NCBI GenBank assembly: GCA_043727675.1
Contig: JAYSYJ010000281.1
Location: 2,665 to 66,664, forward strand
Origin: Fimbriiglobus sp.
Lineage (GTDB): Bacteria > Planctomycetota > Planctomycetia > Gemmatales > Gemmataceae
Length of the DNA: 64,000 nt
Direction of reading: 5' to 3'
The notes below the pieces were generated by a model, which saw nothing but the letters and a program-made list of their open reading frames with translations, was not told the DNA's origin and made no database searches. A program made the position numbers and the translations under genes. Of the stretch, positions 10,537-63,962 are shown piece after piece. Positions within the stretch are counted from its first letter, which is position 1. Each line of letters begins with the position of its first letter.

Positions 10537-10680
10537 GGTGGCGATCCTACAGGGTGACTCGACGAAAAGCGGGCCTGACGCCGGCACGCACAGGGATATG
10601 ATACACCGCACGGAATCGACAGTCGCCGAGACGGTTGGTTCGACGATTGTCGTCAGTCGTGGAACCCGGAGTGATCGACC

Positions 10681-11427: not shown

Positions 11428-11512
11428 AGTTGGAAGAAAGCTCCTTGCAGTTCGTTCCCCCTCCGCTTACCCTCAGCCCACACGCCACCACTCCATTCGT
11501 TTGGGTCGATCC

Positions 11513-41878: not shown

Positions 41879-42886
41879 TTAGTTCCGCGGGATGACGATG
41901 GTTTGCAAAGCACCGTCTGTCGGCAGAGTCACGATGGGGGCCGCATCAGTTGGCTGCAACGGTACCGCCGGGTTGAAATTCGAGAGTGGAATCGGCAACG
42001 GTGGCGGCGTCACCATCGGGGTGAAGTGGGTCGGCACCGGCAACACCCATGTCTTCGTTTCGATCATCGAACCATCTCGCCCCGGCTTCGAATACTGCGT
42101 CGGCTCACCGATTCGACTTTGCGGAACCGAGAAACTGGCCGGTTGGGTCGCGTTCCCTTTCGGGATCGCCAAATTGGGCGGGGGAGATCCATTGGCCAAA
42201 CCCGTCGGTTGATTCTGGAACGCTTTGTTCAAGTCGGGGATACCGCGTAGCTCGGTAGGCCCCGTCGGCTGAATCGACACACTCGTCTCGCCAATTTTGT
42301 TCCAGACCTTGGCGTTGGCATCACTGAAATCGAGCGTCATCGAGACATCTTTGGCGAACAGATCCGGGTTCGGCTTGGAGATATATTTCGCCTGCATCCG
42401 CACATTGGTCACGTCTTTCCAACCTGTGGGCCAGGGTAAAAAGATCGCGTAGCAAGTGCCGAAGCGGTCGTCGTTGGTGGCGAGTTTCCGCAGCGCGACT
42501 TTGTCGAAACTCCAGATCTCCGTCATCGCCGACGGCTGACCCGGTGGGCGTTTCGTTTCGTCGAGAGCTTGTACCACCAGATCGCCCGTCACCTCGACGG
42601 ACTCTTTATCCGAACCGATCAAGAAGAGCTGTCCGACGATGCCGGGTGCCAAGACGCCATCCCGGCTCGGATCGGGCAAATGCTGAGGCCGCCGCTGCCA
42701 GAAGCAAATCACTTGGGACGCCGGTTTAGGCGCCTCCAAGTGGAGGACTTGGGCGAATTCCGATTTGGTTTTCTTCAAGCTGGCACAACCGAAACCAGCC
42801 GGGAGGAGCAGTGCAGCCACGAGGGCCAGACCGCTCCCAATCCGTACGGTTCCGAACCGGGCGATCAGCGACCGTAAACGCGCCAT
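41879..42886 (-). CDS. lipoprotein encoded immediately downstream of the secretin (function unknown, Pro-rich C-terminus)
   Basis: The start is set at MARLRSLIARFGTVRIGSGLALVAALLLPAGFGCASL, a lipoprotein signal with Cys. The ATG at 42886 overlaps the secretin 3' end by 22 nt. Confidence 0.6.
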   Translation of the reverse strand: MARLRSLIARFGTVRIGSGLALVAALLLPAGFGCASLKKTKSEFAQVLHLEAPKPASQVICFWQRRPQHLPDPSRDGVLAPGIVGQLFLIGSDKESVEVTGDLVVQALDETKRPPGQPSAMTEIWSFDKVALRKLATNDDRFGTCYAIFLPWPTGWKDVTNVRMQAKYISKPNPDLFAKDVSMTLDFSDANAKVWNKIGETSVSIQPTGPTELRGIPDLNKAFQNQPTGLANGSPPPNLAIPKGNATQPASFSVPQSRIGEPTQYSKPGRDGSMIETKTWVLPVPTHFTPMVTPPPLPIPLSNFNPAVPLQPTDAAPIVTLPTDGALQTIVIPRN

Positions 42887-45800: not shown

Positions 45801-48800
45801 CTTCGATGGATGCGATCAGCGCTTTGATGGCGTCCACTTCCGCCCGGTTCTTACCGCGAACGATCACGATGCCGAGTTCTGGCAGCGGGATGATTTGGAC
45901 ATCCGAACTCGGCGAGAGGAATGGCACGCCGGGCGCAGGCAACGCGGCTGGCTTCGTGGTGCCACCGGGCTGCGGAACGCCGGGTTGAGGCAACGGCGTC
46001 TGCCGTTGCATCGCGTTGGTGTAAGCCTGATAAAGAGCCGGACTTTCGTTGGCACTGGTGTGGCTCGATTGTTCAAGCTCGGGGTCGAAGAAGATGCTGG
46101 GGGCCGAAGGGACATCCATGTCCCCGTAGCTAAAAGAATCGCGGCCCCCCTGGGAACTCACTTGATTCCCCCCTCCGCCACCGAATCGACCGCCGCCGCC
46201 TCCCCCTCCGCCACCACCTCCCGGGCGACCACCGAAGTTTCCACCGCCGAAGCCACCTTGGCCGCCGCCGAAGTTTCCAAATCCACCCTGGCCACCGTTG
46301 AAGCCACCTCGATTTTGCTGATTCGGTTGAACGGGAGGGCGACCGGCGAGTGCATTGATCGTCTGCTCGATTTGCGTCGGGGTGACACCGCCTTTGAGTT
46401 GCACGACATCGACCACAATCCCGCTATCTTTCGCAGCCAAGTCGAGTTCTTCGACGAGCTTCTTGATTTCGAGGTAGTCAGTTTCGACGCAGTTCAGCAC
46501 CACCTTGTTCGTGGCGTCGTCGTAATCGATGGCCAAGGCAACGTTGGTGGGTGCCGGGGCCGCTTGCGGGGCGAACGGGTTGAACGGGTTGCCACCTTGT
46601 TGCCGGACGGCATTGCGACCCGTCTTGTTGGCGTAGACGTTGCGAATCGTCGGCACCAAACTCGACGCCTTCGTGTTGATCACCGGGATCGTCCAAGCTT
46701 TGGCGACTCCCCCCTCCGGCGGGGTGTTATCGTCGATGGCGTTCTTCAGCAGGTACTTGATCATCAGCATGTCGAGTTGCGACGCTTTGATGACCACCAG
46801 TGAGTTGCTGTTCTTTTCGCCGAGTACGCGAACACGGCCCGCTTTCGGATCGGTCGGCGTCCCGGCGCCCGATCCACCGAGTCCTAACAAAGCCAGCGGG
46901 TTTAAGGCGGCCAGTCCACCTCCCCGGCCCCCTTGCGGGGCTGCACCGGCAGCGGCCGGGCCGTTGAATGCTTCGTTGATGAACTTCGCCGCCTCTTCCG
47001 CCGCGACGTACTTCAACCGCAGAATCGTGAATTGCTCTTCGCCGACCGCGCTCGGATTCAAATAGAGCCGGAGCAGTTCGTAGGCGATGGCGACCGCTTT
47101 TTCGTCTTTGCCACTGATGAAGATTTTGTTCCCGACCACCGTGAGGATGACCGGATCTTCCGCAGGCTTTTGCGGATCGACAAGCTGTGAGGAAATCAGT
47201 TGCGTCCGGCCGACCGGGTCGGCGTTCAACTGGCTGCTTCCGGGCACCCCCACTTTGGGCGCCGGTGCCGGCGGCTTCGGATCGGGCTTCTTCTCTTGAC
47301 CGGGGATTATCAACTGGGCCGGCCGGCCCATTTGGTTCATCATTCGGACGATTTCTTCGGCGAGGGCACCCGCGTTAGCTTTATCGATGGTCAACGAGCG
47401 GAAGTTGCCGGTCTGACCCGCAGCCCCTTTGGCACCGGCGTTGATGAATTCCTTCGCGTTGGCAATCGCTTCGGGGGAACCCCGCACGAGTACCGACGGT
47501 TCGCCGTCCGTTTTGGCTTCGACATACAACCCCGTGCTGCCGAAGACGGTCTTCAAACTCTCGGCCATCTTGACCGGATCGGACGTGCCGACCGGGATGA
47601 TCTCCACCGCGACCGGAGGCGCTTTGGGAACCTTCAAGAACGGCTGAATGTCGATGTGGTCGGCCGGGTAGCCGTAGATGGTGACTTTGTCGTTGCCGAC
47701 GGCGAACGCTTGGACGTTGCTCCCTTTGAAGTCGGTCGATGCCATGAGTTGCTTGGCGAGCGGCTCGGCCATCCCGGCGGGCACTTCGTAGGTCTTTTGA
47801 ACTGCCTCGCCGCCCACGAGGCGGGTGATTTCGCCTTTGTCGATGTCCTTCACCAAATTGTTGGCGACGGTCACTTTGTTGGCCGGGCCGGTGAGGATGA
47901 TCGTGTTGTTTTGGTAATCGACGGTGATTTGCACCGTAGCGAAGCGCTTTTCTTGAACCGGCTGCCGGTTGGCACGCGGGTCTTGCATCTGCGGTTGACC
48001 GAACCCGGCTCCACCGAAGCCGCCGCCACCCCCGCCGAAGCCACCGCCTCCGTTGAAGCCGCCAAACGGGTTACCGGGGATGTTCGATTCGATCTTGGTT
48101 TTTTCGTCGGCCAACAGCGTGCGCAACCGGTCGGCGACCGTGGTGGCACGCACGTGCTTGCACTGGTAAGTCATCTGATCGGACTTATCGCCCTCCAACT
48201 CCAAGACGTGCTTGTAGATGGTTTTGATGTTCTTGGCTTTGTCACGGATGATGAGCTGGTTCGTGCCGAAGGCGCTCACGGCTCCGAAAGCGCTCAACTG
48301 TTGCTTGGCCTGCGGGACGACATCTTCGGCGACCACGGTTTTGAGGGGGATCACCACTTGCACGACTTCCGTGTTCCCGCGCGTCGCGAGTTCTTCGAGC
48401 GTGACCTGCTGGAGCAAGTTCGGATCGATCTTTTCGGAAGCGGGGTGAATCAGGAACGATTGTTCCCGGCGGATGATCACCCAGTTTTTTTGAGCCAACG
48501 CTTCGTTGATAAGATCCAGAACTTCGGCGAGCGTGTATTTCTTGTCCGACTTCAGGGTCAACGTACCCGTGACCTTCTCGGTGCTGATGAAAATCAGCCC
48601 GCTTTCTTTCGAGAACCAATCGAGTACCGAGCTCCACGGCGTCTGGTCGAACGCAACGGTGTACGTCTTCTCGACTTTCGCCGGAGTCGCGGTGCCGGTC
48701 ATCGGCGGCTTGGGTGGATCCATCGGAGCCGGTTTGACTTGGCCGACGGCCGGGCCGGTAATGCCCACCGCGAGTACGGCGGGCAGCCAACGACGAAGCG

Positions 48801-48849
48801 TCCGCCAGGATGGTACCGTTTGACGGGACTCTGTCCGTTGCGAATTCAT
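42865..48849 (-). CDS. giant secretin (type II/III secretion system secretin family), about 1994 aa
   Basis: The C-terminal secretin domain reads VVLGGLIRKSDVKLENKIPWFGDLPWVGAAFRYRTQQSERRELIFIMTPHIIRS. At least 12 secretin-N (NolW-like) repeats are recognisable by paired motifs such as FQLKRADATLTQTLLTNLF...NAILVTAPATTMRLLETLITELD. The protein also has Gly/Phe-rich tracts and a Pro-rich tail. The start is set at MNSQRTESRQ (ATG 48849). Confidence 0.9.
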   Translation of the reverse strand: MNSQRTESRQTVPSWRTLRRWLPAVLAVGITGPAVGQVKPAPMDPPKPPMTGTATPAKVEKTYTVAFDQTPWSSVLDWFSKESGLIFISTEKVTGTLTLKSDKKYTLAEVLDLINEALAQKNWVIIRREQSFLIHPASEKIDPNLLQQVTLEELATRGNTEVVQVVIPLKTVVAEDVVPQAKQQLSAFGAVSAFGTNQLIIRDKAKNIKTIYKHVLELEGDKSDQMTYQCKHVRATTVADRLRTLLADEKTKIESNIPGNPFGGFNGGGGFGGGGGGFGGAGFGQPQMQDPRANRQPVQEKRFATVQITVDYQNNTIILTGPANKVTVANNLVKDIDKGEITRLVGGEAVQKTYEVPAGMAEPLAKQLMASTDFKGSNVQAFAVGNDKVTIYGYPADHIDIQPFLKVPKAPPVAVEIIPVGTSDPVKMAESLKTVFGSTGLYVEAKTDGEPSVLVRGSPEAIANAKEFINAGAKGAAGQTGNFRSLTIDKANAGALAEEIVRMMNQMGRPAQLIIPGQEKKPDPKPPAPAPKVGVPGSSQLNADPVGRTQLISSQLVDPQKPAEDPVILTVVGNKIFISGKDEKAVAIAYELLRLYLNPSAVGEEQFTILRLKYVAAEEAAKFINEAFNGPAAAGAAPQGGRGGGLAALNPLALLGLGGSGAGTPTDPKAGRVRVLGEKNSNSLVVIKASQLDMLMIKYLLKNAIDDNTPPEGGVAKAWTIPVINTKASSLVPTIRNVYANKTGRNAVRQQGGNPFNPFAPQAAPAPTNVALAIDYDDATNKVVLNCVETDYLEIKKLVEELDLAAKDSGIVVDVVQLKGGVTPTQIEQTINALAGRPPVQPNQQNRGGFNGGQGGFGNFGGGQGGFGGGNFGGRPGGGGGGGGGGGRFGGGGGNQVSSQGGRDSFSYGDMDVPSAPSIFFDPELEQSSHTSANESPALYQAYTNAMQRQTPLPQPGVPQPGGTTKPAALPAPGVPFLSPSSDVQIIPLPELGIVIVRGKNRAEVDAIKALIASIEEITKKSAAINLTVVPLEYGDATQIVFELTQIYSKLQLGTSGTSFPQAATNLGFGGVGFQGGGQQNQANRQTIGSILLFPLPRSNAILVGVPESRLDDVKKEIKRLDVPNSPQMKPVPYQLKRATASTVATQITNFFNQRYPGEALAQNQIRVTYDVATNTVFVQASPADQNDIADLIGKFDTNTSKAISEVKLIKLRNALPEEVSQLLVQVLTSNALNPQLSASAGLAPTGTGAGGAGGQQQNLGQGTGAQGGLAQQQNRPAALNTLTGTGNNSTGLSSKTVSLRFNNLETGQLEDVHLFPDTRLNAILVTAPATTMRLLETLITELDSTSAAKSFINVFQLKRADATLTQTLLTNLFSSQQTGGGGLNQGGVTQTQGTTRPLLTLTGNPSDGATLINLRLVADPRTNTLIVSGSQNDLDTIRAVVTRLEDAEIPQQRTEVYKLSNAASADVAAVINTFLTTTTQQLNTAQFNTTAATFQTLQRQFVVTAEPVTNTILVSASPQFFAQIVELIRKIDAAPPQVFVQIMIAEVRLNNTEEMGIEVGLQSPILFARGSVATAPGTPGFNFNSTAPLPNANLTNQGAVAFQGLGNLGVGRISTTGVGAGGFVLSAASDTFSLLIRALKAQGRVDVLSEPQLTLTDNQTGFFQVGQQFPRITGSTVTGTGLVTQNVEYISTGVVLRITPRISPEGRVLMRVEPQISSPSASNISLGNGVTATPIDTQTVETTVQASSGETVVLGGLIRKSDVKLENKIPWFGDLPWVGAAFRYRTQQSERRELIFIMTPHIIRSEADMARVVSEAAKNMSWDLKQVDKIHGHGSDVLSGRYHNALLPQTPYCPPEGQPGEVPPSLMNLPFSPTGQVTTGLSGTPSVYNPQPGQPMAGPPPAQFPIQGPPPVSNNLPTPRPGFAGPNQTDVPTVPQIGTDPNSGVQPQSWNSPAQAGNGWSFGKTPAGGMTPSTTGPTLGKPKEGKEWRVYGR

Positions 48850-48973
48850 ACTGACCCCCCATGTACAGTGCGACGCAAGCTTGTTGGAACGCCCCCGGGC
48901 CAGAATCAACTGGCCCACGTCCCGCTTGTGCCGACCTATTTACGCGCGATTCGACCGGCGAGATACCCATACC

Positions 48974-56174: not shown

Positions 56175-56276
56175 TCACCCCGCGTCTGATCGCCCGGGAA
56201 CGAACGTCAACCAAGCGGAAAGCCCCAGCCCGAAACTGAAGAGCACTCCGACCACCGCTTGTTGCTTCTGAATCAT
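56175..56276 (-). CDS. 33-aa single-TM mini-protein (predicted; below the ORF-track size cutoff)
   Basis: The translation is MIQKQQAVVGVLFSFGLGLSAWLTFVPGRSDAG. AGGAG lies 6 nt upstream of the ATG and overlaps the TAG of the preceding ORF. Two hairpins follow the stop. Confidence 0.35.
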   Translation of the reverse strand: MIQKQQAVVGVLFSFGLGLSAWLTFVPGRSDAG

Positions 56277-56285
56277 GTTCGGCTC

Positions 56286-56468
56286 CTATTCCGAGAGTGT
56301 GTCGTTGTAACTCAGTTCGAACTCTCGCAACAGGCCAATTTCGCCGAGGGGCAGCACGTTAGCCGCGAGACGAAAGTCGAGCGCGGGCAGGAAGAAACCA
56401 TCCGGGATTCGATTGGGGGACACCGCGCCCGCGCTCGACTCCGTCTCGCCACTAACAGCGCCCGACAT
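56286..56468 (-). CDS. 60-aa hypothetical protein translationally coupled to the helicase
   Basis: ATG (56468..56466) overlaps the helicase stop TGA (56470..56468), an ATGA overlap. By eye about 75 percent of third codon positions are G/C, as in neighbouring genes. The translation is MSGAVSGETESSAGAVSPNRIPDGFFLPALDFRLAANVLPLGEIGLLREFELSYNDTLSE. Confidence 0.4.
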   Translation of the reverse strand: MSGAVSGETESSAGAVSPNRIPDGFFLPALDFRLAANVLPLGEIGLLREFELSYNDTLSE

Positions 56469-58420
56469 CACCCCTCCTCCCAAACACTGCTGTAGGCGTT
56501 GATCCCTTCAAAGTGGGCAATCATGCGTTGGTAGAACGGGTGGTTCGATAGCGTGGCGCTGTCGCCGATGACCAGGAGTGAACGCCGCGCTCGGGTGAAG
56601 GCGACGTTGGTGCGGCGGGTGTCGGCGAGAAAGCCGATCTCGCCTTCGGGGTTGGAGCGCACGAACGTGACGAGAATCGCTTCCTTCTCTTGGCCCTGGA
56701 ACCCGTCCACGCTGTCGATTTCGAGATCGGGCACGTCGATCAGCATCTCTTGCAGCAGCCGCACTTGCGCCCGGTACGGCGAAATAATGCCGATGCTCGA
56801 CGCGGGGACGCCGGCGGCGAGCCAACGGCGGGCGTACGTTTCGGCGAGTTCTGCCTCCTTCAAATTCCGCCGGCTGCCGCTTTCGGGTTCGCGCTCTTCG
56901 TCGTAACTGGCCCCGGCCGTGTCGATGAACCGCACCGGTTGCTCGGTGAGCGGACTGGCCGTCACGCCCTCCAGATCGCAGAGCCGATGACTCGCCACCG
57001 ACTCGTGGGCGATCAAGGCGCCGCCGTAGAACTCGCCGTTCGAGAAACCCATGATCGCCTCGTGCATCCGATGCTGCACCGTCAACAACCGGGCGACCTT
57101 CGGCCCCATATGATCGGTGAGGCGCTCCATCAAACTGATCGACAGGCCCTTTGAAGCGGCCTCGGGGGAAAGTACCGTCGCGGGCAGTTGCCGGTGGTCG
57201 CCGGCGAGGACGAGCTTGTCGACGCGCATGAGTGGTAGCCAAGTCGCCGGCTCGGTGCTCTGACCCGCTTCGTCGACCATCGCCCAGTCGAAACGCCGGC
57301 CGATGAGCCGGTCGCTGGTCAGCCCGGTGAGGGTGCCACAGACGATTCGCGCCTCGTTCAAAATGCGTTCGGCGGCGATCGCTTCGAACTTGCGCGCTTC
57401 GCCGAGCAAGATGCGGGCCTCTCGGCGCTGGGCCGCTTTCTCGCCGGGTTGGGGCCGCTCTTTCGTCCATTTGTCGGCTTGCTGGAACAACGAGTAAGCC
57501 TCCTTGGCGAACTTGCGAGCTTGTCGACCATCCACGTGTTTCTGCACGAGCATGTCGAGGGCGCGATCACGGAGCGCGGGGTCGACGCGGGCCGGGTGGC
57601 CCACACGCACGGGCTTCTCGCCGATGGCGAGCAACTTTTCGAGCAGGTTATCGACAGCGTGATTGCTCGGAGCGCAGGCCAGTACGCGTTCGCCGCGCAG
57701 CACCGCTTGGCGGATCACTTCGACGAGCGTGGTGGTCTTGCCGGTGCCCGGCGGGCCGTGGATGATCGCCACATCTTTCGCGCTGAGTGCGAACAGGACC
57801 GCTTCGCGTTGCGGTTCGTTCAAGTGCGGTGCGAGATCTAAATTGCGTTCCTTGTCGAACAGCGGCGGGCGTTCGCCAAGCAGCACCGTGCGCATTTCCG
57901 CCAAGCGATCCCCGGCCGAGTTGGCGGCCCGGCGCAGCGCTTCTTGCTGACGTTGCCGGGAGATTTCATCCGATGACAGGTCGAGCCGCCAAGTGGCGTC
58001 GTCCGACAGATCGTCGTCGGGCGGCTCGATGGCCACACCGATGCTGGTGGCATCGCGGTCGAAGACGACGCCGCGGTACGATGGGTGACGTCGGTTCACG
58101 CCGGTCTGGTTCAGCACCACCGGCGAGCCGGATTGCAGGCGATTCGATTGCAGACGGTCGGAACGCAGCGCCCGGGTGAACGTGAGCATCAGCCGGCCAC
58201 CGAGGCCGAACTCGGCTTCGCGCAGCACCAACTTGGTGAGGGTGATGCCGTCGCGCAGGCCGGTGTCGGACAGCGCCGCTTTGCGCAGCGCCTCTTGCTC
58301 GGCGGCCGCTTCGAGGTCGAGCAGGGCCACAAGTTGGGCGAAGTGTTGCACGGGGATCGGGGGTCGCGGCATTGGAACCTCGGAGGCATTGCGAATCTTC
58401 AGCCCGAAAAAGAACCTCAT
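56468..58420 (-). CDS. superfamily-1 helicase, IGHMBP2/Upf1/DNA2-like (AAA_11/AAA_12 type)
   Basis: Motifs are IHGPPGTGKTTTLVE (motif I), VLACAPSNHAVDNL, MVDEAGQ (II), LVLAGDHRQLPATV (III), TVQHRMH, SVDGFQGQEKEAILV and NVAFTRARRSLLVIGD (VI). ATG 58420 overlaps the upstream stop (ATGA). An alternative ATG lies at 58372. Confidence 0.9.
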   Translation of the reverse strand: MRFFFGLKIRNASEVPMPRPPIPVQHFAQLVALLDLEAAAEQEALRKAALSDTGLRDGITLTKLVLREAEFGLGGRLMLTFTRALRSDRLQSNRLQSGSPVVLNQTGVNRRHPSYRGVVFDRDATSIGVAIEPPDDDLSDDATWRLDLSSDEISRQRQQEALRRAANSAGDRLAEMRTVLLGERPPLFDKERNLDLAPHLNEPQREAVLFALSAKDVAIIHGPPGTGKTTTLVEVIRQAVLRGERVLACAPSNHAVDNLLEKLLAIGEKPVRVGHPARVDPALRDRALDMLVQKHVDGRQARKFAKEAYSLFQQADKWTKERPQPGEKAAQRREARILLGEARKFEAIAAERILNEARIVCGTLTGLTSDRLIGRRFDWAMVDEAGQSTEPATWLPLMRVDKLVLAGDHRQLPATVLSPEAASKGLSISLMERLTDHMGPKVARLLTVQHRMHEAIMGFSNGEFYGGALIAHESVASHRLCDLEGVTASPLTEQPVRFIDTAGASYDEEREPESGSRRNLKEAELAETYARRWLAAGVPASSIGIISPYRAQVRLLQEMLIDVPDLEIDSVDGFQGQEKEAILVTFVRSNPEGEIGFLADTRRTNVAFTRARRSLLVIGDSATLSNHPFYQRMIAHFEGINAYSSVWEEG

Positions 58421-60462
58421 ACCAGCGCGAGTGCGATGGCCTCCTTCGCCGTGGCGACCAATTTCACGTCGATGATCGCTTTCAACTCGTCGGTCAGTTC
58501 GTTCAGTACGTCGGCGTTGGCCGCGGGGATCAGCACCGTCTTACGGCCGGCCTTGGCGGCCGCGGCGATCTTGAGTGGCAACCCGCCAACGGCGCCGACT
58601 TCACCGTGCAGGGCCACCTCGCCGGTGAAGGCGAAGCCCGGCTTGATCGGCCGGTTGGTGAGGGCCGAGACCATGCCGACCAAGAACGCGAGGCCGGCCG
58701 AGGGGCCATCCTTCGCTTCGGAAATCTTGACCAAGTGCACGGCGACCGATTGCGACTTCAACCGCTGCTCGGGGATGTTGAAATCGCGGAAGTTGGCACG
58801 GATCAGATTGTACACCGCGCGCACGGAGTCCTTGAGTGTTGCACCGTGGAGACCCGTCACCTCGACCCCGCTCGACCCGTTGAGCGCCGACACTTGAATC
58901 AAGATCGTGTCGCCGCCGTACTCGCGCTCGCCCTTGGTCAGTACAGCCAAGCCGGTCACCGCGCCGACGACGGCTTCGGTATTCAAGCGATCCGCGGTCG
59001 GTGCCACGACGCGGGCTTGCAAATCGCGTGCGGTGTGAACCATCACCGACGCCGGGGCGATAAGACGCGGCTTGAATTCGCCGGGTGCTAACACGCACAG
59101 TTGCTGGTGGACGCGCTGCCGGAGTTCGCTGGCGAAGGTCACAATCTCCAAGAGTTCCGGCTCCGTCCAGAGGCCGTTCGGGTGGAGAATTTTCAACAGC
59201 CCGGACGACAACCGCTCCACGGCGGATTGATCGCGGCGGGTCAACCCGGCGTGCATCGGTACGGCGCGCACGGCATCGACGAACGTGTCTTCCCGCAACT
59301 TCACCAGTACTTCGCCGAAGTAGTCGATCACGAAGCCGACACCCGTGGCCAGCGACGCCGGGGTGATTTTGGGCACCTCCCAACCGGGGATGTACCCGTG
59401 CATGCGGTCGTGGAACGCGCTGTCGATGATCTCGTCCGGCAGCGGCTCGAAGAGGTGGTTGTATTTCGGGTGGGGCTGGTTCCCTTCCACGTCGATATTG
59501 CCCGCGAAAGCCAAACTCGCGTCGGCGGCAAAGCCGATGGAACCGCGGCTGAACTGGCCGCTTTCCATGTAGTCCTTCAGTGTCGATATGGTCTCTTCGC
59601 CGTCCCCAAAGGTGGTGTGCGCGATCTCGTCGAAGACGACCACTTTCCGGGTGCCGAGGATGCCGACTTGCTTGGTGGACAAGTTCACGAACAGGTTCGC
59701 CGGCGTCGTTTTACCACCGGAAATGGTGAAAACACGCGGCGACAAGTTCCGCAGGAGAAACGTCTTCCCGGTCTGGCGTGGCCCGAGTTCGATGATGTTC
59801 ACGTTCCGTTCGACCAGTGGCACCATCCGTGCGAACAGCAACATTTTGGTGCGGAACTCGGGGAAAGCACTCGCGGCGTACCCCGCCGATTGCAGCATCA
59901 GCCCGGCCCATTCTTCGGTGCTGAATTGGGCCCGCATCGTTCGGTACGCCGCCAAGTCGGGCGGCCCGACTTGGAACGGCGTGAAAGCGATCAACTCGTT
60001 CGGGGTGTCGGCGTCCATCTCCGGCGAGTACTTCACTTTGGCGGTACCCCACAACCCGCCGAGGAGCAGGCCGGGGTTCTCTTCGGTCAGCTTCCCACCG
60101 ACGCGAACCTTGATGTCACCGAGCGCCGGTACCCGTGCCAACCGCTGCCCGCCGCGCAGATCGATCTTCACTTCCACGGCGTCGATCAACGTCACCTCGC
60201 CGCGCGACAGGAGCTTGTCCTTCAGCAGTTCCCGGCGATCCATGTCCGGCAGGAGGTCGGCGATCTTCGCTTGGATGTTGGCGATATCGGTCTTCCACGT
60301 CTCCGGTTTGACGTACTTCGCAATCAGGTACTCCGACACATAGCGTGGCAGTCGGTTGAAGGCGGCCGACGACGCCAGCGACTTCACGACGACTTTTTCG
60401 CCGAGTAATTCGTGGGCTTTTTTGTCCAACTCGGCGAGAGGGTGCTCATCGAACAGGGCCAT
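58417..60462 (-). CDS. BrxL-family AAA+ ATPase / Lon-like protease (BREX-type BrxL homologue, orphan)
   Basis: The N-terminus LPRYVSEYLIAKYV...GEVTLIDAVEVKID...GGLWGTAKVKY is BrxL-N-like. Walker A is ELGPRQTGKT, Walker B is VVVFDEI, and KDYMESGQFSRG is present. The C-terminal Lon domain has KDGPSAGLAF (Ser) and GGLPLK (Lys) 43 residues apart. Confidence 0.85.
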   Translation of the reverse strand: MALFDEHPLAELDKKAHELLGEKVVVKSLASSAAFNRLPRYVSEYLIAKYVKPETWKTDIANIQAKIADLLPDMDRRELLKDKLLSRGEVTLIDAVEVKIDLRGGQRLARVPALGDIKVRVGGKLTEENPGLLLGGLWGTAKVKYSPEMDADTPNELIAFTPFQVGPPDLAAYRTMRAQFSTEEWAGLMLQSAGYAASAFPEFRTKMLLFARMVPLVERNVNIIELGPRQTGKTFLLRNLSPRVFTISGGKTTPANLFVNLSTKQVGILGTRKVVVFDEIAHTTFGDGEETISTLKDYMESGQFSRGSIGFAADASLAFAGNIDVEGNQPHPKYNHLFEPLPDEIIDSAFHDRMHGYIPGWEVPKITPASLATGVGFVIDYFGEVLVKLREDTFVDAVRAVPMHAGLTRRDQSAVERLSSGLLKILHPNGLWTEPELLEIVTFASELRQRVHQQLCVLAPGEFKPRLIAPASVMVHTARDLQARVVAPTADRLNTEAVVGAVTGLAVLTKGEREYGGDTILIQVSALNGSSGVEVTGLHGATLKDSVRAVYNLIRANFRDFNIPEQRLKSQSVAVHLVKISEAKDGPSAGLAFLVGMVSALTNRPIKPGFAFTGEVALHGEVGAVGGLPLKIAAAAKAGRKTVLIPAANADVLNELTDELKAIIDVKLVATAKEAIALALV

Positions 60463-60465
60463 GGT

Positions 60466-61965
60466 TCAGGCTCCAAAAACGTCGTCGAGGTCGGGGTTGT
60501 GTCGAATGTCGCTCGGCTTCGGCGGCGCGGCTGGGGGTATCAATGATTCGCCGAACGGTAGTATTAATTCTTGCGCGGCCCGGAGAATATCGGCCCGTTT
60601 CGTTTCCGCCATCCGCATGAATTCGACACCCAGCGTTGCCGCTTTCGCGGGGTCGGCCTTCTCGGTGAGCAGGGTGAACCGCCGGCGGATCAGTTCGACC
60701 GACAGCACCGCTACAGGGTCGATCTCGAGAATCTGACGCGGTGACCAGTGTTCGACGGGCTTGGTCGGTTCGGCAGGTGGGACACTCGTCGCCATGCCCA
60801 ATGCCAACGCGATTCGTTTGAGCGCATCAACTTCACGCGAGTTGCGATCCCCAGAGGCATCGGCAATGGACTCGGCGACTTTGCACAGCATCCGCCGTTC
60901 ATCGGTCGTTGTCAGCTTCATCACGGCGGCTACGGCATCGTCTTCGTCCGGGATTGCTTTTTCGATCTGTTCCATCACCGGGTCGATGAACCGCAGTAGC
61001 GTGGAATCGTGGCCGAAGCTGGAAGCGAGCAACTCGCGGACTTGGGCACGCTCCGCTTTGGCAATCTTGCCATCCACTTTGGCGACCATCCACGCGAACG
61101 CGCAGTAAGCCCGCAACTTCGGCAACTGCGGGTGCTCGGCACTCGGAGTCGCTGTCTGCGGTGGCGGTGCCGGCCGGAACAGATCGACGGCGACGGGCAC
61201 CGACGCGGGCTTCGCCGCGAGCACGGGCTCCGCCACGCGAACTTCCGGAGCCACCGGCTTCGACACGGGTACCGGGATGATCACCGGAGTTTCGATGACC
61301 AGTTCCGGAAGCGGGCGATCCATCATCTCGTTGGTCGGGCCGGGGACGTGCCCCTTGTGCAGCAGATGGTTCCAGAAGGTCACATCGCGGGCCAATTGAA
61401 GCTGCGGTTGCAGGGCCGCTATGGTGCGTTCGCAGGCGGTATTCGTTCGCGTGCGGGTTTCGCGTTCGGTTTGGTCGGCGGCGGTCATTTCGGCCCATCG
61501 TCGACGGTATTCTTGCCCTTCCGGGCTGGCTCCGGCTTCGAACTTCGCCTTGGCGTCTTTAAGAGCTTTTTCGACCGCCACGCGGACTTCCGAGGCCTTG
61601 GCCGGGCCGAAACCGGGGATTTGCATGAAATCGTAATTCATCAAGCTCGTCAGCGTCAACAAACCCGCCGACTGGAGCCGATCCGCTGTGCCGGGGCCGA
61701 TGCCCGCAAAGCCCATAATTGCCGACGAAGGCATCGCTTTCAACTGCTGATCGAGCAGGGTTTCGCCGAGCTTCAGTCCTTGGGCTTGTGTTTCCGTCGG
61801 AAAATCGGTCGGTCGAATTCGGGCCTGCAATTCCGCCAAGTGCCGCCGAACGCGGTTACGCCACAAGCCGGTCTGGGAATGGCGAAACTGCCAATAGAAG
61901 AATCCGAGTGTCACGGCGGCCGTGAGAAGGAGCAATAACAAGAATCCGACCAAAAAATTGTGCAT
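60466..61965 (-). CDS. membrane-anchored (HhH)2 + TerB-like + DjlA-type J-like domain protein
   Basis: ATG 61965 gives MHNFLVGFLLLLLLTAAVTLGFFYW, an N-terminal TM segment (alternative GTG at 62001). The HhH motifs are GIGPGTADRLQSAGL and IPGFGPAKASEV. A Pro/Val linker follows. The TerB-like region is AWMVAKVDGKIAKAERAQVRELL...LCKVAESIADASGDRNSREVDALKRIALALG. The C-terminal segment LLTEKADPAKAATLGVEFMRMAETKRADILRAAQELI aligns with the E. coli DjlA J domain. The stop lies 3 nt before the BrxL-like ATG. Confidence 0.75.
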   Translation of the reverse strand: MHNFLVGFLLLLLLTAAVTLGFFYWQFRHSQTGLWRNRVRRHLAELQARIRPTDFPTETQAQGLKLGETLLDQQLKAMPSSAIMGFAGIGPGTADRLQSAGLLTLTSLMNYDFMQIPGFGPAKASEVRVAVEKALKDAKAKFEAGASPEGQEYRRRWAEMTAADQTERETRTRTNTACERTIAALQPQLQLARDVTFWNHLLHKGHVPGPTNEMMDRPLPELVIETPVIIPVPVSKPVAPEVRVAEPVLAAKPASVPVAVDLFRPAPPPQTATPSAEHPQLPKLRAYCAFAWMVAKVDGKIAKAERAQVRELLASSFGHDSTLLRFIDPVMEQIEKAIPDEDDAVAAVMKLTTTDERRMLCKVAESIADASGDRNSREVDALKRIALALGMATSVPPAEPTKPVEHWSPRQILEIDPVAVLSVELIRRRFTLLTEKADPAKAATLGVEFMRMAETKRADILRAAQELILPFGESLIPPAAPPKPSDIRHNPDLDDVFGA

Positions 61966-62156
61966 AGAGCATCGGGCACGGAAGAATAGCGGAATCGGCA
62001 CGGTTGATTTAGGGTTCTGCCGAATTCCGGCGACGGAACTCTGCGAGGTCAGACCGCCTTTTTGAAAGCGCCACCCCTTGCGGGCATATGATGGTTAAGC
62101 GATAATGACACTGTTGACCGTCTGGTTCAGGATGAACTCCGGAGACGCCCACCACT

Positions 62157-62774
62157 ATGCGACGAATCATTCCCTCGGCCAGTAGCCGCTCGATGGCCGG
62201 TGTCATGGCCGCCGTGATGCTCGGAACTGCACTCGGCGGACAAGAAGCCTGCGCCGGTTCCAACGCACCGGCCTCGACCTTCCAAGTTGACGACCATGCT
62301 GTCCGCGATATCACCCGCTATTGCCACGTCTGTTGGCGCAATGCCCGGCTGCCGGAAGACTTGTGGGCCGACTGCACCCAACTGGTATTCACCCGATTGC
62401 TCGAAACGGTCAGCCGCGACCGCTGGACGGGGTTGCTCAAAACCGAAGACGGCGACAAACGCGAATTCCTACGGGCCATCGACGCGGTGAAAAAGCGAAC
62501 CCAGCGCGCCCGCCGATTCGTCGATCTGTCGAGCGAAGTCGCCGACAACGGCACAAGTGCTAACGGCGTTCTCGATCAGCGTGAGGAGGTCAATAAGGCG
62601 GCCGGGGAAGTGCTCAGCGAGCGCCAGCAGAAGATCATCCACCTTTCGGCCGATGGATGGGCTGTTCCGGAAATCGCAGTCGAACTGGGCACCACCACCC
62701 AACGCATCAGCGACGAGAAGTACAAGGCGATCCGCAAACTCCGCGAAAAATTGGGCGTGGATGCGGGGGCGTAA
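62157..62774 (+). CDS. sigma-70 family (ECF-like) RNA polymerase sigma factor
   Basis: The region-2-like segment is LWADCTQLVFTRLLETVSRDRW. The region-4 HTH is LSERQQKIIHLSADGWAVPEIAVELGTTTQRISDEKYKAIRKLREKL. The N-terminal ~45 aa are atypical, so the start is uncertain. Confidence 0.65.
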   Translation: MRRIIPSASSRSMAGVMAAVMLGTALGGQEACAGSNAPASTFQVDDHAVRDITRYCHVCWRNARLPEDLWADCTQLVFTRLLETVSRDRWTGLLKTEDGDKREFLRAIDAVKKRTQRARRFVDLSSEVADNGTSANGVLDQREEVNKAAGEVLSERQQKIIHLSADGWAVPEIAVELGTTTQRISDEKYKAIRKLREKLGVDAGA

Positions 62775-62778
62775 AACA

Positions 62779-62988
62779 ATGACCATTTCACCCGGTCGGT
62801 ATCGACACTACAAAGGCAACGAGTACGAGGTAATCGGCACGGCCCATCACAGTGAAACTCAAGAGCTTTTCGTCGTCTACCGCGCCCTTTACGGCGACTC
62901 GGGATTGTGGATCCGCCCGGCGGCCATGTTCGCCGAAACCGTGGAACACAACGGGGTGACGGTGCCACGCTTTGGGTTACTTTCGTAA
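62779..62988 (+). CDS. DUF1653 domain protein
   Basis: MTISPGRYRHYKGNEYEVIGTAHHSETQELFVVYRALYGDSGLWIRP carries the DUF1653 hallmark YRHYKG..Y.V...A.HSET.E..VVY. The track ORF (62557) overlaps the sigma gene, so I use ATG 62779. Confidence 0.75.
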   Translation: MTISPGRYRHYKGNEYEVIGTAHHSETQELFVVYRALYGDSGLWIRPAAMFAETVEHNGVTVPRFGLLS

Positions 62989-63080
62989 GTTAATCAGTTG
63001 GAAACTTGTTGCCCCATCCAACGATGGAATGGGCGAAGTTCCCGCCCTGATTCCCCTTGACCCCGTTCTCGGTCGACCGT

Positions 63081-63962
63081 ATGCCTGTGCCGCTGGTCGT
63101 TGGCCACGTCCCCGTTTTACCCGCGGAGACGCTGCGCCTGCTGAACCCACTCCCGGGTGAAACTTGGGTCGATTGCACCACCGGCGGCGGTGGACACGCC
63201 CGGATGATCGCCGAGAAACTCGGCCCCAGCGGTCGATTGTTCGCCCTCGATCAAGACCGCACAATGCTGGCCCTCGCGGCACCGAAATTGGCCGATTTGC
63301 CGGTGACGCTGATCCCGGCGAACTTCGACCAACTGGCCGACGTGCTGCAAAATTTGGGTGTGGCGAAGGTCGATGGGGTCTTCGCCGACCTCGGCTTCAG
63401 TTCGGATCAACTGAACGACGCCGATCGTGGCTTGAGCTTTAAGAACAATGGCCCGCTCGACATGCGGCTCGACGGACAAACCGGAGCCACGGCGGCCGAC
63501 CTCGTGAATACCCTGAGCGAAGGTGGCTTGGCCGACATCATTTACGAGTTCGGCGAAGACCGGTTAAGCCGGCGAATCGCGAGACGGATTGTCGAACGGC
63601 GCGAAGCCAAACCGTTCGAAACTACCGAAGAATTGGCGAACGCGGTGCGCAGTTGCGTGCCCCGCAGTGGTGGCATCGACCCGGCAACGCGGACGTTCCA
63701 AGCCCTGCGGATTGCGGTGAACGACGAACTCGGAGCACTCGACCGCTTGCTGGCCCTCTTGCCGAAAGTCGTACGGGCGGGTGGTCGGATCGGAATCATC
63801 AGCTTCCATTCGCTGGAAGATCGGCGGGTGAAACAGGCTCTCCGGGGGTCGCCGCACTGGGAGAGCTTGACGAAGAAGCCCGTCGAAGCGGGCGACGACG
63901 AACAGGCCCGGAACTCGCGTGCTCGGAGCGCGAAGTTGCGGGTGGCGAAACGGTTGGGTTAA
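63081..63962 (+). CDS. rsmH: 16S rRNA (cytosine1402-N4)-methyltransferase RsmH (MraW)
   Basis: Motifs are HVPVLPAETL, DCTTGGGGHA, DLGFSSDQL, LDMRLD, TFQALRIAVNDEL, ISFHSLEDRRVK and NSRARSAKLRVA. The track start at 63057 is TTG, so I use ATG 63081. Confidence 0.92.
   Translation: MPVPLVVGHVPVLPAETLRLLNPLPGETWVDCTTGGGGHARMIAEKLGPSGRLFALDQDRTMLALAAPKLADLPVTLIPANFDQLADVLQNLGVAKVDGVFADLGFSSDQLNDADRGLSFKNNGPLDMRLDGQTGATAADLVNTLSEGGLADIIYEFGEDRLSRRIARRIVERREAKPFETTEELANAVRSCVPRSGGIDPATRTFQALRIAVNDELGALDRLLALLPKVVRAGGRIGIISFHSLEDRRVKQALRGSPHWESLTKKPVEAGDDEQARNSRARSAKLRVAKRLG

Follow-up and report, generated by a model that had tools for sequence, protein, structure and literature searches.

What does a BrxL-family AAA+/Lon protein do where the rest of BREX is not found, and which of the genes packed around it belong with it? 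The locus that raises this question lies in a 64-kb stretch of Fimbriiglobus sp. DNA (64,000 nucleotides, here called the window), in which five minus-strand ORFs, A to E, run head to tail. A preliminary description took all five to form one new system. Although the five ORFs are indeed present (5/5 in the ORF listing; Table 1), what holds together as a unit is the two-gene module A-B. These two genes are translationally coupled, inherited together and co-diverging, and they probably serve defence or DNA surveillance.

Table 1. Features of the locus (positions in the window; residue numbers of A follow its 511-aa frame)
Feature	Position	Strand	Remarks
Divergent intergenic region	61966..62156		between gene A and a plus-strand 205-aa gene
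Gene A, TerB partner protein	60466..61965	-	upstream member of the conserved pair, 499 aa from ATG 61965
N-terminal transmembrane helix of A	61882..61971	-	about residues 11-40; helix 11-40 in the model
Tandem helix-hairpin-helix region of A	61534..61728	-	about residues 92-156, two G-I/F-G-P hairpins
Pro-rich low-confidence linker of A	61126..61314	-	about residues 230-292
TerB domain of A	60790..61125	-	about residues 293-404, PF05099
Small helical domain of A	60553..60741	-	about residues 421-483; called J-like in the preliminary description
Extreme C-terminal tail of A	60469..60504	-	RHNPDLDDVFGA, preceded by a Pro-rich spacer
Gene B, BrxL-family protein	58417..60462	-	681 aa; BrxL N-domain, MCM-like AAA+ ATPase, Lon protease domain
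Lon dyad of B	58570..58701	-	Ser588 58699-58701, Lys631 58570-58572
Gene C, IGHMBP2/Upf1-type SF1 helicase	56468..58420	-	probable start M17 at 58372, 634 aa
Mini-ORF D	56286..56483	-	60-65 aa, no family match
Mini-ORF E	56175..56276	-	33 aa, one hydrophobic helix, GGAG 9 nt upstream

The locus and its flanks

Gene A stops at TGA 60466-60468 and gene B starts, after the 3-nt gap originally described, at ATG 60462, with GGAG 10 nt upstream. The ORF of gene A is open from GTG 62001 (511 aa), and its 55 homologues, all from Gemmataceae where a source is named, begin at the equivalent of M13, which bears out the start first proposed (ATG 61965). From the gene layout, the divergent intergenic region is presumed to be the promoter region of an A-B(-C) transcript; it holds no sigma-70-like match, both of the matches found falling inside gene A.

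The flanks had been called ordinary, and the TPR/Peptidase_MA protein, DUF1653 and rsmH are as described, whereas the reported 'sigma factor', the plus-strand 205-aa gene beyond the intergenic region, has no Pfam match at E <= 1e-5. The operon adjoins rsmH, at the head of a division/cell-wall cluster. Domain annotation ORF by ORF covered ORFs of at least about 400 aa; as already claimed, PglX, PglZ and BrxC domains are absent from the 20 largest other ORFs of the window (0/20), and the PADLOC families listed for the window (25 of 39) are generic kinase and helicase models only.

Gene B is an orphan BrxL with an intact Lon dyad

The evidence supports gene B as a true, orphan member of the BrxL family whose BREX partners were not found. 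In agreement with its first assignment as a BrxL-type AAA+/Lon protein, it matches BrxL_N, BrxL_ATPase and Lon_C in Pfam, BrxL in PADLOC (1.9e-137), TIGR02688, the NCBIfam BrxL model (416 bits; cutoff 329), and the Acinetobacter BrxL structure 8EMC (E = 5.6e-87, residues 11-655). The N-domain is the DNA-binding part. Identity of B is 66-98% across Gemmataceae (mean 68% over the core; Limnoglobus 80%, Fimbriiglobus ruber 76%), and the Walker A (K233/T234) and Walker B (D278/E279) motifs are kept in all relatives.

The two dyad residues are 43 positions apart, the same spacing as S679/K722 of E. coli Lon (alignment to 1rr9), and the dyad is invariant in A1. Among long-form relatives the Ser is kept in 71 and the Lys in 72, one carrying Asn at the Ser position; the dyad persists in the nearest 50%-identity clusters, about 13 of them, and is lost in more distant BrxL representatives. 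BrxL of BREX lacks the Lon Ser-Lys dyad according to the literature, and 8EMC has Leu and Cys at the aligned positions, whereas the dyad of the gene B clade is intact. Protease activity of B is predicted from these two residues, and the proteolytic output suggested in the preliminary description is more plausible than was then known because the dyad is intact.

Could B be the leftover of a decayed type 1 or type 4 BREX locus, with its upstream neighbour there by chance? B does pass the TIGR02688 and PADLOC BrxL models, and Lon-less short forms among its relatives resemble type 4 BREX BrxL. However, B reaches only 397 bits against TIGR02653, the model of full-length BREX BrxL (cutoff 628), and purifying selection on it is strong, its Walker motifs and Lon dyad both being intact. 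BREX domains are missing not only from the large window ORFs but also from the annotated Gemmatales flanking genes, and the upstream partner with its tail motif recurs across two phyla and co-diverges with B, as set out below. Decay of a BREX locus is thus extremely unlikely.

Gene A and its C-terminal tail

The composition first read from gene A, a transmembrane helix, HhH motifs and a TerB domain, holds up. Its TerB domain matches PF05099 (3.6e-10, residues 298-404), and in an AlphaFold model of the product (mean pLDDT 87.6) the domain finds the TerB-fold proteins 2h5n and 2ou3 by Foldseek (probability 0.9-1.0). An Arg/His-rich stretch, RHSQTGLWRNRVRRH, comes after the hydrophobic run LVGFLLLLLLTAAVTLGFFYW, so that by the positive-inside rule the bulk of this single-pass protein would face the cytoplasm. 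In the HhH region G100, I101, G102, P103, T105 and G132 are invariant or near-invariant among homologues; the Pfam match to HHH_5 is weak (0.0048, below cutoff), and Foldseek aligns the region locally, and weakly (probability 0.7-0.93), with the C-terminal domain of NusA, the N-terminal domain of RAD51 and Y-family polymerases. These motifs and weak matches suggest a putative DNA-binding module without sequence specificity. The linker that precedes the TerB domain consists of gap-rich, length-variable alignment columns, with pLDDT below 60 over residues 250-290.

The small helical domain (helices 435-448, 451-455 and 459-483 in the model) is missing from the Myxococcota partner proteins described below. 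It had been called J-like, and it does carry DP-x-K at the position of the J-domain HPD and draws weak Foldseek matches to the J domains of DnaJ and HscB (probability 0.57-0.75, E > 2). Set against the J domain of E. coli DnaJ by hhalign, it scores a probability of 1.4%, and profile comparison thus lends the J-like reading no support.

A evolves fast (mean 34% identity in its best-conserved part). R500-D506 of its C-terminal peptide, RHNPDLDDVFG, are invariant in 34 homologues. The motif, R-x-N-x-x-L-D-x-x-F-G after a proline-rich linker, is invariant in Gemmatales; in other Planctomycetota it appears as RRDNPDLDAIFG at the end of 1100-1300-aa TerB proteins, and in Myxococcota partner proteins as VRDNPALDDLFG, VRANPLLDSLF and VRQNEGLDSVFG, the tail-bearing partners of these two phyla being otherwise barely alignable. 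It is carried by 104 of 3751 ORF segments, 84 of them directly upstream of BrxL-like genes and the remaining 20 belonging to other TerB-family genes, with no background match in the other approximately 3650 segments (at least 150 aa, from the same loci). In sequence terms, then, the tail motif is a hallmark of the partner proteins of BrxL-like genes. From its conservation and position I propose that it may be a docking peptide for the product of gene B. Since the Lon-less relatives keep a tail-bearing partner, the part of B that the tail would bind is probably not the protease but the N-domain or the ATPase.

A and B form the conserved unit

BrxL-like genes have a TerB-family gene as their immediate 5' neighbour, in the same orientation and usually 2-7 nt away. 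Of 69 genome loci anchored on BrxL (Gemmatales, other Planctomycetota and Myxococcota; 600 nt or more of sequence on the upstream side), 54 have a tail-motif ORF immediately 5' of the BrxL-like gene; conversely, a BrxL-like gene is immediately 3' in 27 of 42 TerB-anchored metagenome loci. The pair is unlinked in the other 15 of the 69 BrxL-like loci and 15 of the 42 TerB loci, so adjacency is not obligatory. Divergence of A and B is correlated over 51 loci (r = 0.85), a value reached by 0 of 999 Mantel permutations. In two phyla the tail motif follows B in its occurrence, and the functional coupling of B to an upstream TerB protein, first proposed for this one operon, is borne out.

The composition had been thought unnamed, and so it proved: PADLOC v2 holds no named system of A-B composition, none of the literature searched has BrxL and TerB in one paper, and the pair is undescribed in those papers.

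The helicase and the mini-ORFs lie outside the unit

Gene C is the IGHMBP2/Upf1-type helicase that it had been taken for (TIGR00376, 494 bits, cutoff 349; AAA_11, AAA_12 and the SMUBP-2 1B domain in Pfam). The sequence does contain the reported ATGA overlap of B and C, but gene callers on near-identical contigs start C at M17, with GAGG 7 nt upstream, which leaves a gap of 44 nt. C is probably co-transcribed with A-B here.

A single Shango-like system of all five genes with a small membrane-peptide output, as first envisaged, would draw on the tight same-strand packing in the window and in near-identical contigs, on the MkoA model of Mokosh, whose helicase core C matches (8.5e-87), and on E, which is identical in contig L137 (0 differences in 102 nt) while neighbouring intergenic DNA differs by about 5%. 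However, orthologues of C occur across Planctomycetota at 57-79% identity (69-79% in Zavarzinella, Limnoglobus, Blastopirellula and Isosphaera); away from this locus their contexts are housekeeping ones, with hemC or a gene for a pseudouridine synthase as neighbour, and in Limnoglobus the helicase is 2.4 Mb from the pair. It adjoins BrxL only in the window, in the near-identical metagenome contigs L137 and L138 and in the near relatives L007, L035 and L036; it is absent downstream in L005, L006 and L088, whose BrxL is 89-90% identical, and in all 42 TerB-anchored metagenome loci, each with 400 nt or more on the downstream side. C is therefore a housekeeping gene and a lineage-specific neighbour, which a local rearrangement may have set downstream of A-B.

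D has no match among family profiles (Pfam, PADLOC, NCBIfam) and differs at 21 positions from L137, a contig 98.4% identical overall, where indels of 2 nt and 1 nt shift the frame and alter the C-terminal half. Both D and E are gone from L035 (88% identical), in which homology ends exactly at the helicase stop codon. D is most likely fast-evolving intergenic sequence and not a conserved gene; E, identical in L137 but lost in the next relative, is a candidate small gene. The two hairpins reported after E are present; they lack a T-run and fold just as stably as shuffled sequence (z = -0.05). Finally, the Shango models of PADLOC match none of A, B and C (0/3). Non-synteny outside close relatives, named beforehand as what would speak against the proposal, is what was found for three of the five genes. 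A five-gene system is very unlikely, and of the neighbours to be tested for recurrence beside orphan BrxL the tail-bearing partner recurs in two phyla, the helicase only in near relatives.

Defence or housekeeping?

On balance, the reading I favour, and to which I give about an even chance, is that A-B is a membrane-tethered BrxL-like ring/protease module most likely serving surveillance of, or defence against, incoming DNA. The flexible spacer and C-terminal peptide of A would tether B to the membrane anchor and so bring a ring powered by ATP to the membrane's inner face. BrxL behaves as a DNA ring (PMC10164562), and by analogy B may encircle DNA, which the HhH region of A would hold at the membrane while the TerB domain might serve as the sensing or regulatory part. 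The output would be ATP-dependent action of B on DNA, to which the long form may add proteolysis by its Lon domain, and the pair would act independently of the BREX methylation machinery.

A less probable alternative, though one to be taken seriously, is that a TerB/HhH anchor and a BrxL-like ring serve the routine cell biology of Gemmatales. These are budding bacteria without FtsZ, in which the pair could handle or segregate chromosomes close to the membrane or act, through a Lon-type protease, in DNA-linked protein quality control. B has a single match in each of four large genome records (Limnoglobus, L043, L077 and a Zavarzinella formosa scaffold), three of them complete or megabase-scale, and its identity drops roughly in step with taxonomy; together with a conservation unusual for a defence gene, this fits vertical inheritance and a housekeeping role. 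The co-divergence of A and B, a Lon dyad intact as in housekeeping Lon, and the ordinary neighbours in the window (rsmH beside the operon) and in most sampled Gemmatales loci point the same way.

Against this, partner A is fast-evolving, and some pairs, those of Myxococcota, L140 and L008, have methylases, McrBC, nucleases and a recombinase around them. Defence-type contexts occur in some lineages: the neighbourhood of L071 has an SNF2 helicase, an Eco57I-type methylase, DUF2130 and McrBC, that of L070 a NERD-kinase, that of L140/L141 SNF2, AAA_16 and PDDEXK, and that of L008, a member of Gemmataceae, a type III-like methylase, a UvrD-like helicase and a serine recombinase. Dyad-keeping relatives of B also occur with other upstream partners, BrxD-like ATPases and a dynamin-like GTPase, and such swapping is typical of conflict systems. 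As a weaker point, no Gemmata species is among the matches listed, which hints that some members of the family may lack the pair.

Comparison with known systems

TerB proteins belong to the validated defence systems Shango, Bunzi and Dionysus (literature). What is left of the parallel to Shango drawn in the preliminary description is 'TerB protein plus ATPase' only, and nothing supports the small membrane-peptide output once proposed. The C-terminal peptide of SspB tethers SspB to ClpX, and the tail of A would hold B in a comparable way.

A conserved two-gene unit

Five minus-strand ORFs are present as the preliminary description had it, encoding a TerB membrane protein (A), a BrxL-like AAA+/Lon protein (B), an SF1 helicase (C) and two mini-ORF products (D and E), and its domain calls for A (TerB), B (BrxL_N, BrxL_ATPase, Lon_C) and C (IGHMBP2 type) hold as well. 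Its proposal that the five genes form one system fares differently, as the synteny data speak against it and place the helicase, D and E outside the conserved unit. What is conserved is the A-B pair. Translational coupling of A and B is tight, the stop codon of A lying 3 nt before the ATG of B with a GGAG 10 nt upstream.

Coordinates of the features discussed, in the window unless another contig is named
Feature	Location	Strand	Remarks
Gene A, TerB membrane protein	60466-61965	-	499 aa; residues below numbered in the 511-aa frame from GTG 62001
A, transmembrane helix, then basic stretch	residues 11-40		AlphaFold model
A, helices with two G-I/F-G-P hairpins	about residues 92-156		AlphaFold model
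A, long helix	between hairpin region and Pro-rich linker		AlphaFold model
A, disordered proline-rich linker	about residues 230-292		AlphaFold model
A, TerB bundle	residues 293-404		AlphaFold model
A, three-helix domain	residues 421-483		AlphaFold model
A, second spacer and short terminal helix on the tail motif	C-terminal end		AlphaFold model
Gene B, BrxL-like AAA+/Lon protein	58417-60462	-	681 aa
Gene C, SF1 helicase	56468-58420	-	includes the ATGA overlap with B
Mini-ORF D		-	
Mini-ORF E	56175-56276	-	33 aa, hydrophobic
205-aa gene, DUF1653 gene and rsmH	62157-63962	+	divergent from A-B
Secretin-family protein	42865-48918	-	2017 aa, four Secretin_N repeats
Pair with its surroundings, Gemmataceae contig L008	832-14689		double-TerB partner
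Dyad-keeping relative of B with another partner, L139	5548-10094		
Dyad-keeping relative of B with another partner, L143	351-4918		
Dyad-keeping relative of B with another partner, L140	3127-14148		
Lon-less BrxL form, Zavarzinella formosa (L060)	9920-11443		
Helicase compared for the DbpA domain, L085	6001-8121		

The B-anchored sample comprised 80 loci on contigs taken at one genome per species, mostly from Gemmataceae or Gemmatales, with a few from other Planctomycetota (54% identity) or Myxococcota (47-50%). When an A-family profile was run against six-frame translations, most of these loci had an A-family gene directly upstream on the same strand, usually with a gap of a few nucleotides. 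The A family ends, behind a proline-rich spacer, in the invariant peptide RHNPDLDDVFG, hereafter the tail; in the window, A is the same-strand upstream gene and ends, past its Pro-rich spacer, in RHNPDLDDVFGA, which follows the pattern R-x-N-x-x-L-D-x-x-F/L-G. Tails of this kind also close the genes upstream of other BrxL-like genes, including those whose products can otherwise barely be aligned or not at all: in other Planctomycetota, TerB proteins of 1100-1300 aa end in RRDNPDLDAIFG; in Myxococcota, proteins of 220-600 aa end in VRDNPALDDLFG, VRANPLLDSLF or VRQNEGLDSVFG; and the partners of short BrxL forms that lack the Lon domain end in LRDNSLLDDVFG or DRHNPDLDAVFG.

All fetched loci together contain 3751 ORF segments of 150 aa or more that end at a stop codon, and the final 18 residues of each were searched for the pattern R.N..[LIM][DE]..[FLG]. 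It matched 104 times, 84 of them directly upstream of a BrxL-like gene and the other 20 all in A-family genes that had been fetched through A, a count in which the metagenome loci are not independent because they were fetched with the same motif; background matches among the 3751 segments numbered 0. Of the 69 BrxL-anchored genome loci whose upstream sequence extends for 600 nt or more, 54 have a tail-bearing gene there, and a BrxL-like gene immediately follows A in 27 of the 42 A-anchored metagenome loci with room downstream; adjacency is therefore not constant, 15/69 BrxL-like and 15/42 A-family loci being unlinked. Across 51 loci, pairwise identity in the BrxL core correlates with that in the last 230 residues of the partner (r = 0.85, a value reached in 0 of 999 Mantel permutations), with the partner evolving twice as fast (mean identity 34% vs 68% for the BrxL core). 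Tail recurrence, reciprocal adjacency and co-divergence together establish that the A-B pair is inherited and diverges as a unit.

Clustering of the ORFs downstream of B gave no third conserved gene: no family occurs in more than 6 of roughly 80 loci, and the family that reaches this number is a generic Ser/Thr kinase. Another dedicated partner was considered for those TerB-tail genes that have no BrxL-like gene beside them and was rejected, as the downstream genes they share encode generic planctomycete PSCyt/PSD1 proteins.

Two side observations concern the metagenome material. The pattern RHNPDLD[DA] matched 170 stretches in the metagenome collection, of which 49 are confirmed relatives of A, and some of the remaining 121 could be unrelated proteins with the same tail. 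Five bins (L010, L020, L029, L031 and L034) are titled 'uncultured Alcaligenaceae bacterium' or 'Bacteroidales' despite carrying clearly Gemmataceae-type TerB/BrxL pairs, and these labels are probably wrong.

The BrxL-like protein

Judged from curated models, which recognise both its N-domain and its BrxL-type AAA+ ATPase, B is a member of the BrxL family. Pfam finds BrxL_N (PF20442, 2.7e-22), BrxL_ATPase (PF13337, 4.7e-103) and Lon_C (PF05362, 1.2e-39), the NCBIfam model TIGR02688 is passed at 416 bits (cutoff 329), and the PADLOC BrxL model matches at 1.9e-137. Residues 11-655 align with Acinetobacter BrxL (8EMC; E = 5.6e-87) with conserved Walker motifs. TIGR02653, the equivalog for full-length BREX BrxL with a Lon-related C-domain, gives 397 bits, below its cutoff of 628, and there are weaker NCBIfam matches to RadA and YifB models.

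The C-domain of B matches the E. coli Lon protease domain (1rr9) at 2e-28. Ser588 and Lys631 align with S679 and K722 of E. coli Lon, spaced 43 residues apart in both, whereas 8EMC has Leu and Cys at these positions. B thus combines, on sequence, the Lon_C fold with the Ser-Lys dyad of Lon (S16) proteases. It has neither the AAA+ module of LonA or LonB type nor their equivalog scores, as TIGR00763 reaches 123 bits against a cutoff of 608 and the match covers the protease domain only. BREX BrxL has been described as lacking the Lon catalytic residues (PMC10164562; also the BrxL passages of a 2026 BREX survey, PMC12839542), and the C-domain of B does not fit this catalytically dead type.

The Walker motifs are kept in all fetched relatives of B. 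Of those that have a Lon domain, 71 keep the Ser and 72 the Lys, and in one the Ser is replaced by Asn. The survey was extended beyond the fetched loci by an exhaustive search of 1.84 billion representative proteins, in which the 13 or so nearest 50%-identity clusters (38-53% identical) keep the dyad with the exception of one Lys-to-Met change, and more distant BrxL representatives have lost the dyad or carry other C-terminal domains. Because the dyad is kept in the relatives and nearest clusters and lost in more distant BrxL, the clade of B is best described, from these alignments, as a distinct BrxL subfamily that retains it. The protease of B is predicted to be active.

Gemmataceae commonly carry a BrxL form of about 480 aa that has no Lon domain (L049-L063, L069, L072-L079 and L082-L084, including Z. 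formosa). Some of these copies have a tail-bearing TerB partner; in nine, many of which come from metagenome-assembled genomes of lakes or other waters, the upstream gene is unrelated and encodes, for example, an FHA-GAF-HD or a thioredoxin-like protein. A further relative, P0076 (78% identity), is recorded as 967 aa with precomputed protein-kinase Pfam matches before the BrxL domains. It could be a gene-calling artefact or a real fusion; Ser/Thr kinase genes are the most frequent downstream neighbours (6 loci).

The partner protein

The frame of A is open from the GTG at 62001, and its homologues begin at the ATG at 61965. TerB membership is clear (PF05099, 3.6e-10, 40.6 bits against a cutoff of 24.4), and an HHH_5 match falls below the Pfam threshold. 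The domain is found as well in partners from other Planctomycetota (29 bits), and one Myxococcota partner gives a weak match (22.3 bits, below the cutoff). PADLOC v2 has no model matching A at E <= 0.01, and a sequence search of A against solved structures returned low-complexity Pro-rich matches and nothing else.

The AlphaFold model of A has a mean pLDDT of 87.6. With the whole model, Foldseek matches are local and weak: probabilities are 0.9-1.0 against TerB-fold proteins (2h5n, 2ou3), 0.7-0.93 against (HhH)2 modules and 0.57-0.75 against J domains, the last being a weak, fold-level resemblance. The preliminary description had called the C-terminal three-helix domain J-like. This is doubtful on closer comparison: a profile search of the PDB with the domain found nothing relevant, hhalign against the J domain of DnaJ gives a probability of 1.4%, there is no DnaJ Pfam match in A, and the HPD tripeptide is absent from A, the aligned loop reading K-A-D-P-A-K (family consensus L-D-P-A-K). 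The Myxococcota partner proteins do without the three-helix domain.

The helicase and the two mini-ORFs

C passes the IGHMBP2 family model TIGR00376 (494 bits against a cutoff of 349) and matches PF13086, PF13087 and PF21138, having the SF1B core and 1B domain of that family. It was thought to be coupled to B through an ATGA overlap. The overlap of the B stop codon with an ATG does exist at 58417-58420, but the helicase more likely starts elsewhere: because gene callers place the start in near-identical contigs 16 codons later, at 58372 behind a GAGG, a 44-nt gap between B and C is more likely than coupling.

Among the B-anchored loci, the helicase follows B only in L007, L035 and L036; it also does so in the near-identical contigs L137 and L138. 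Three loci whose BrxL is 89-90% identical (L005, L006 and L088) have no helicase after B. Identity of C to its orthologues is 79% for Zavarzinella, 74% for Limnoglobus and 69% for both Blastopirellula and Isosphaera, and with 5955 matches at E <= 1e-20 C is among the best-conserved proteins of the phylum. In the complete Limnoglobus genome the helicase lies 2.4 Mb from the A-B pair, and on two other contigs its neighbour is hemC or a pseudouridine synthase gene that it overlaps. C is a housekeeping gene placed behind B by local rearrangement.

The clade of C (634 aa) lacks the N-terminal DbpA RNA-binding domain PF03880 that most planctomycete orthologues (about 705 aa) have. Loss of DbpA coincides in some genomes with relocation of the helicase behind the BrxL-like gene, and short forms also occur in housekeeping contexts (L086, L087). 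That D and E might be a frameshifted remnant of a longer helicase C-terminus was considered and rejected, as all orthologues end at ...SVWEE and the extra 70 or so residues of the 705-aa forms are the N-terminal DbpA.

Neither D nor E matches any Pfam, PADLOC or NCBIfam model. Homology between the window and L035 (88% identical) ends exactly at the helicase stop codon, so both are missing there. Aligned with L137 (98.4% identical overall), the D region shows 21 differences, and D differs at about 10%. Among the differences are indels of 2 nt and 1 nt that give D another C-terminal half, and first, second and third codon positions are all hit by substitutions, a pattern of change indicating that D is no gene. 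One TAG codon separates D from E, which shares its frame. E is 100% identical in L137, while intergenic DNA next to it differs at about 5%; it could encode a genuine small membrane peptide or be some other conserved element, and is specific to this species-level lineage. Shuffled sequence folds as well as the hairpins after E do, and terminator and promoter scans gave counts at or below shuffle expectation.

Genomic surroundings and possible function

Among the matches listed, the public sequences nearest to the window are two metagenome contigs (98.4%) and metagenome-assembled genomes of Fimbriiglobus-like Gemmataceae (88% nucleotide identity). The rest of the window consists of ordinary planctomycete genes, among them carB, a giant secretin, Ser/Thr kinases, PSCyt/PSD1, TPR proteins, DUF1653 and rsmH. 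The secretin-family protein is unusually large. On the other side of A-B, rsmH is the usual first enzyme gene of the division/cell-wall cluster; the 205-aa gene, formerly labelled a sigma factor, has no Pfam match at E <= 1e-5, and it is shared with L035 (97% identity), a contig that ends before DUF1653 and rsmH.

What role could the pair have? In the mechanism I propose, the spacer and tail of A would tether the ring of B to the membrane anchor, much as adaptor peptides do for AAA+ machines; I infer such a tail-ring interaction from co-occurrence and co-divergence. The tail would bind the N-domain or ATPase part of B, because tail-bearing partners persist where the Lon domain is missing. By analogy with BrxL, the ring would act on DNA, which the HhH region of A may hold at the membrane. 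Tentatively, then, and as something possible rather than probable, the pair is an unnamed, BREX-independent two-component system of Planctomycetota and Myxococcota, in which a docking peptide at the C-terminus of a membrane anchor brings in a DNA-encircling ring for ATP-driven action on DNA and proteolysis. If this is true, the pair would act at the membrane on incoming DNA of phages or plasmids as a DNA-guided protease, and would hint at the state of BrxL before its recruitment to BREX and the inactivation of its protease.

The genomic context is mixed. For the pair I favour surveillance of, or defence against, incoming DNA over housekeeping, though not by much. Housekeeping would account for most Gemmatales loci, the window included, which sit among ordinary genes, and for B itself, which is very conserved, falls in identity with taxonomic distance and has one copy in each large genome record examined. 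It sits less well with the defence-like or mobile surroundings met elsewhere. The Myxococcota pairs lie near an SNF2 helicase, an Eco57I-type methylase, DUF2130, McrBC and a NERD-kinase, and the L140/141 loci near SNF2, AAA_16 and PDDEXK. In L008, the pair lies between a type III-like methyltransferase and UvrD-like helicase upstream and a large serine recombinase downstream, in what looks like a mobile or defence island. (The L008 partner is a 1081-aa open frame with two TerB stretches.) The more distant dyad-keeping BrxL-like proteins (37-44% identity) also argue against housekeeping, as they have different upstream partners: two BrxC_BrxD-domain genes encoding BrxD-like ATPases, a dynamin-like GTPase whose stop codon overlaps the BrxL start, and an unknown protein that ends in RVSIDDLFR within an SNF2/AAA_16/PDDEXK cluster. 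This variety looks like the partner swapping of conflict systems. Whichever role applies, defence being slightly preferred, it is the two-gene core that is worth following, and the five-gene arrangement that first drew interest to the locus is unsupported by synteny.

Comparison with known systems

B shares with the BrxL of type 1 BREX (Acinetobacter, 8EMC/8EMH) a BrxL N-domain, an MCM-like AAA+ ATPase and a Lon-fold C-domain, and BrxL forms ATP-dependent rings around dsDNA (PMC10164562). Type 1 BREX, however, brings further components, and the absence of BREX partners noted from the start is borne out: the 20 largest other ORFs of the window contain no methyltransferase, PglZ or BrxC by Pfam, none of BrxA, BrxB, BrxC, PglX and PglZ occurs among these ORFs or in the annotated Gemmatales flanks, and the best 25 of 39 PADLOC families in the window include no BREX families and are dominated by kinase models. 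Gemmataceae genes annotated 'BREX system Lon protease-like protein BrxL' should not, then, be taken as evidence of BREX. No BREX component is less well understood than BrxL, whose Lon-fold domain is considered catalytically dead, whereas B keeps the dyad and has a TerB membrane protein as its partner. The clade of B, outside BREX, with the dyad kept and a partner bearing a recognisable tail motif, offers a two-protein setting for asking how the BrxL ring acts on DNA and whether proteolysis is ancestral. In the BrxL passages of the 2026 survey (PMC12839542), the BrxL of type 4 (phosphorothioation-based) BREX is short, with N-domain and AAA+ ATPase only. The Gemmataceae Lon-less forms resemble it but occur with a tail-bearing TerB protein or alone, and not with PglZ, PAPS reductase or DUF4007.

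Shango (SngA TerB, SngB ATPase, SngC helicase) likewise has a TerB protein gene adjoining an ATPase gene, its TerB protein being the presumed sensing or membrane-associated part. The likeness to Shango suggested earlier goes no further: the pair has a BrxL-family ATPase that carries a Lon domain, the helicase does not belong to the conserved unit, and no Sng model of PADLOC is matched by A, B or C. The expectation that PADLOC would call a lone BrxL and no Shango was right for B, but C also matches MkoA and others. The MkoA match covers the helicase core (profile positions 517-1082 of 1112); C lacks the N-terminal half of MkoA (about 500 aa), there is no PLD nuclease nearby as in Mokosh, and C is the orthologue of a core planctomycete gene. 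With a TerB domain coupled to a defined ATPase, the pair bears on TerB sensing in Shango, Bunzi and Dionysus.

A resembles DjlA in having an N-terminal transmembrane helix, a TerB-fold domain and a C-terminal helical domain, and the UniRef name of its Limnoglobus homologue is 'Co-chaperone DjlA N-terminal domain-containing protein'. It differs from DjlA in reading A/L-D-P where a J domain has HPD, and in having an HhH region, long linkers and the tail motif, none of which is known from DjlA. With LonA, B shares the protease domain and its dyad, joined in B to a BrxL/MCM-type ATPase with no Lon N-domain, and B falls far short of the cutoff of every Lon equivalog. RadA/Sms and ComM-type helicases also have a Lon-fold domain, and RadA illustrates that Lon-fold rings can sit on DNA motor proteins. 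The C-terminal peptide of SspB binds the N-domain of ClpX and so tethers an adaptor to an AAA+ machine. The tail of A is similar in being a short, conserved, extreme C-terminal peptide behind a flexible spacer, encoded beside an AAA+ enzyme, but it has no sequence similarity to SspB-type peptides, and any resemblance would be functional only. The tail motif also gives a search handle for partners that sequence profiles miss.

In the library searched, no paper mentions both BrxL and TerB, and the passages on BrxL in the 2026 BREX survey describe no BrxL-TerB module. The locus is not BREX, Shango, Mokosh or DjlA; it brings known domain families together in a recurrent pairing that is undescribed in the searched literature, and the motif of its partner protein is new.
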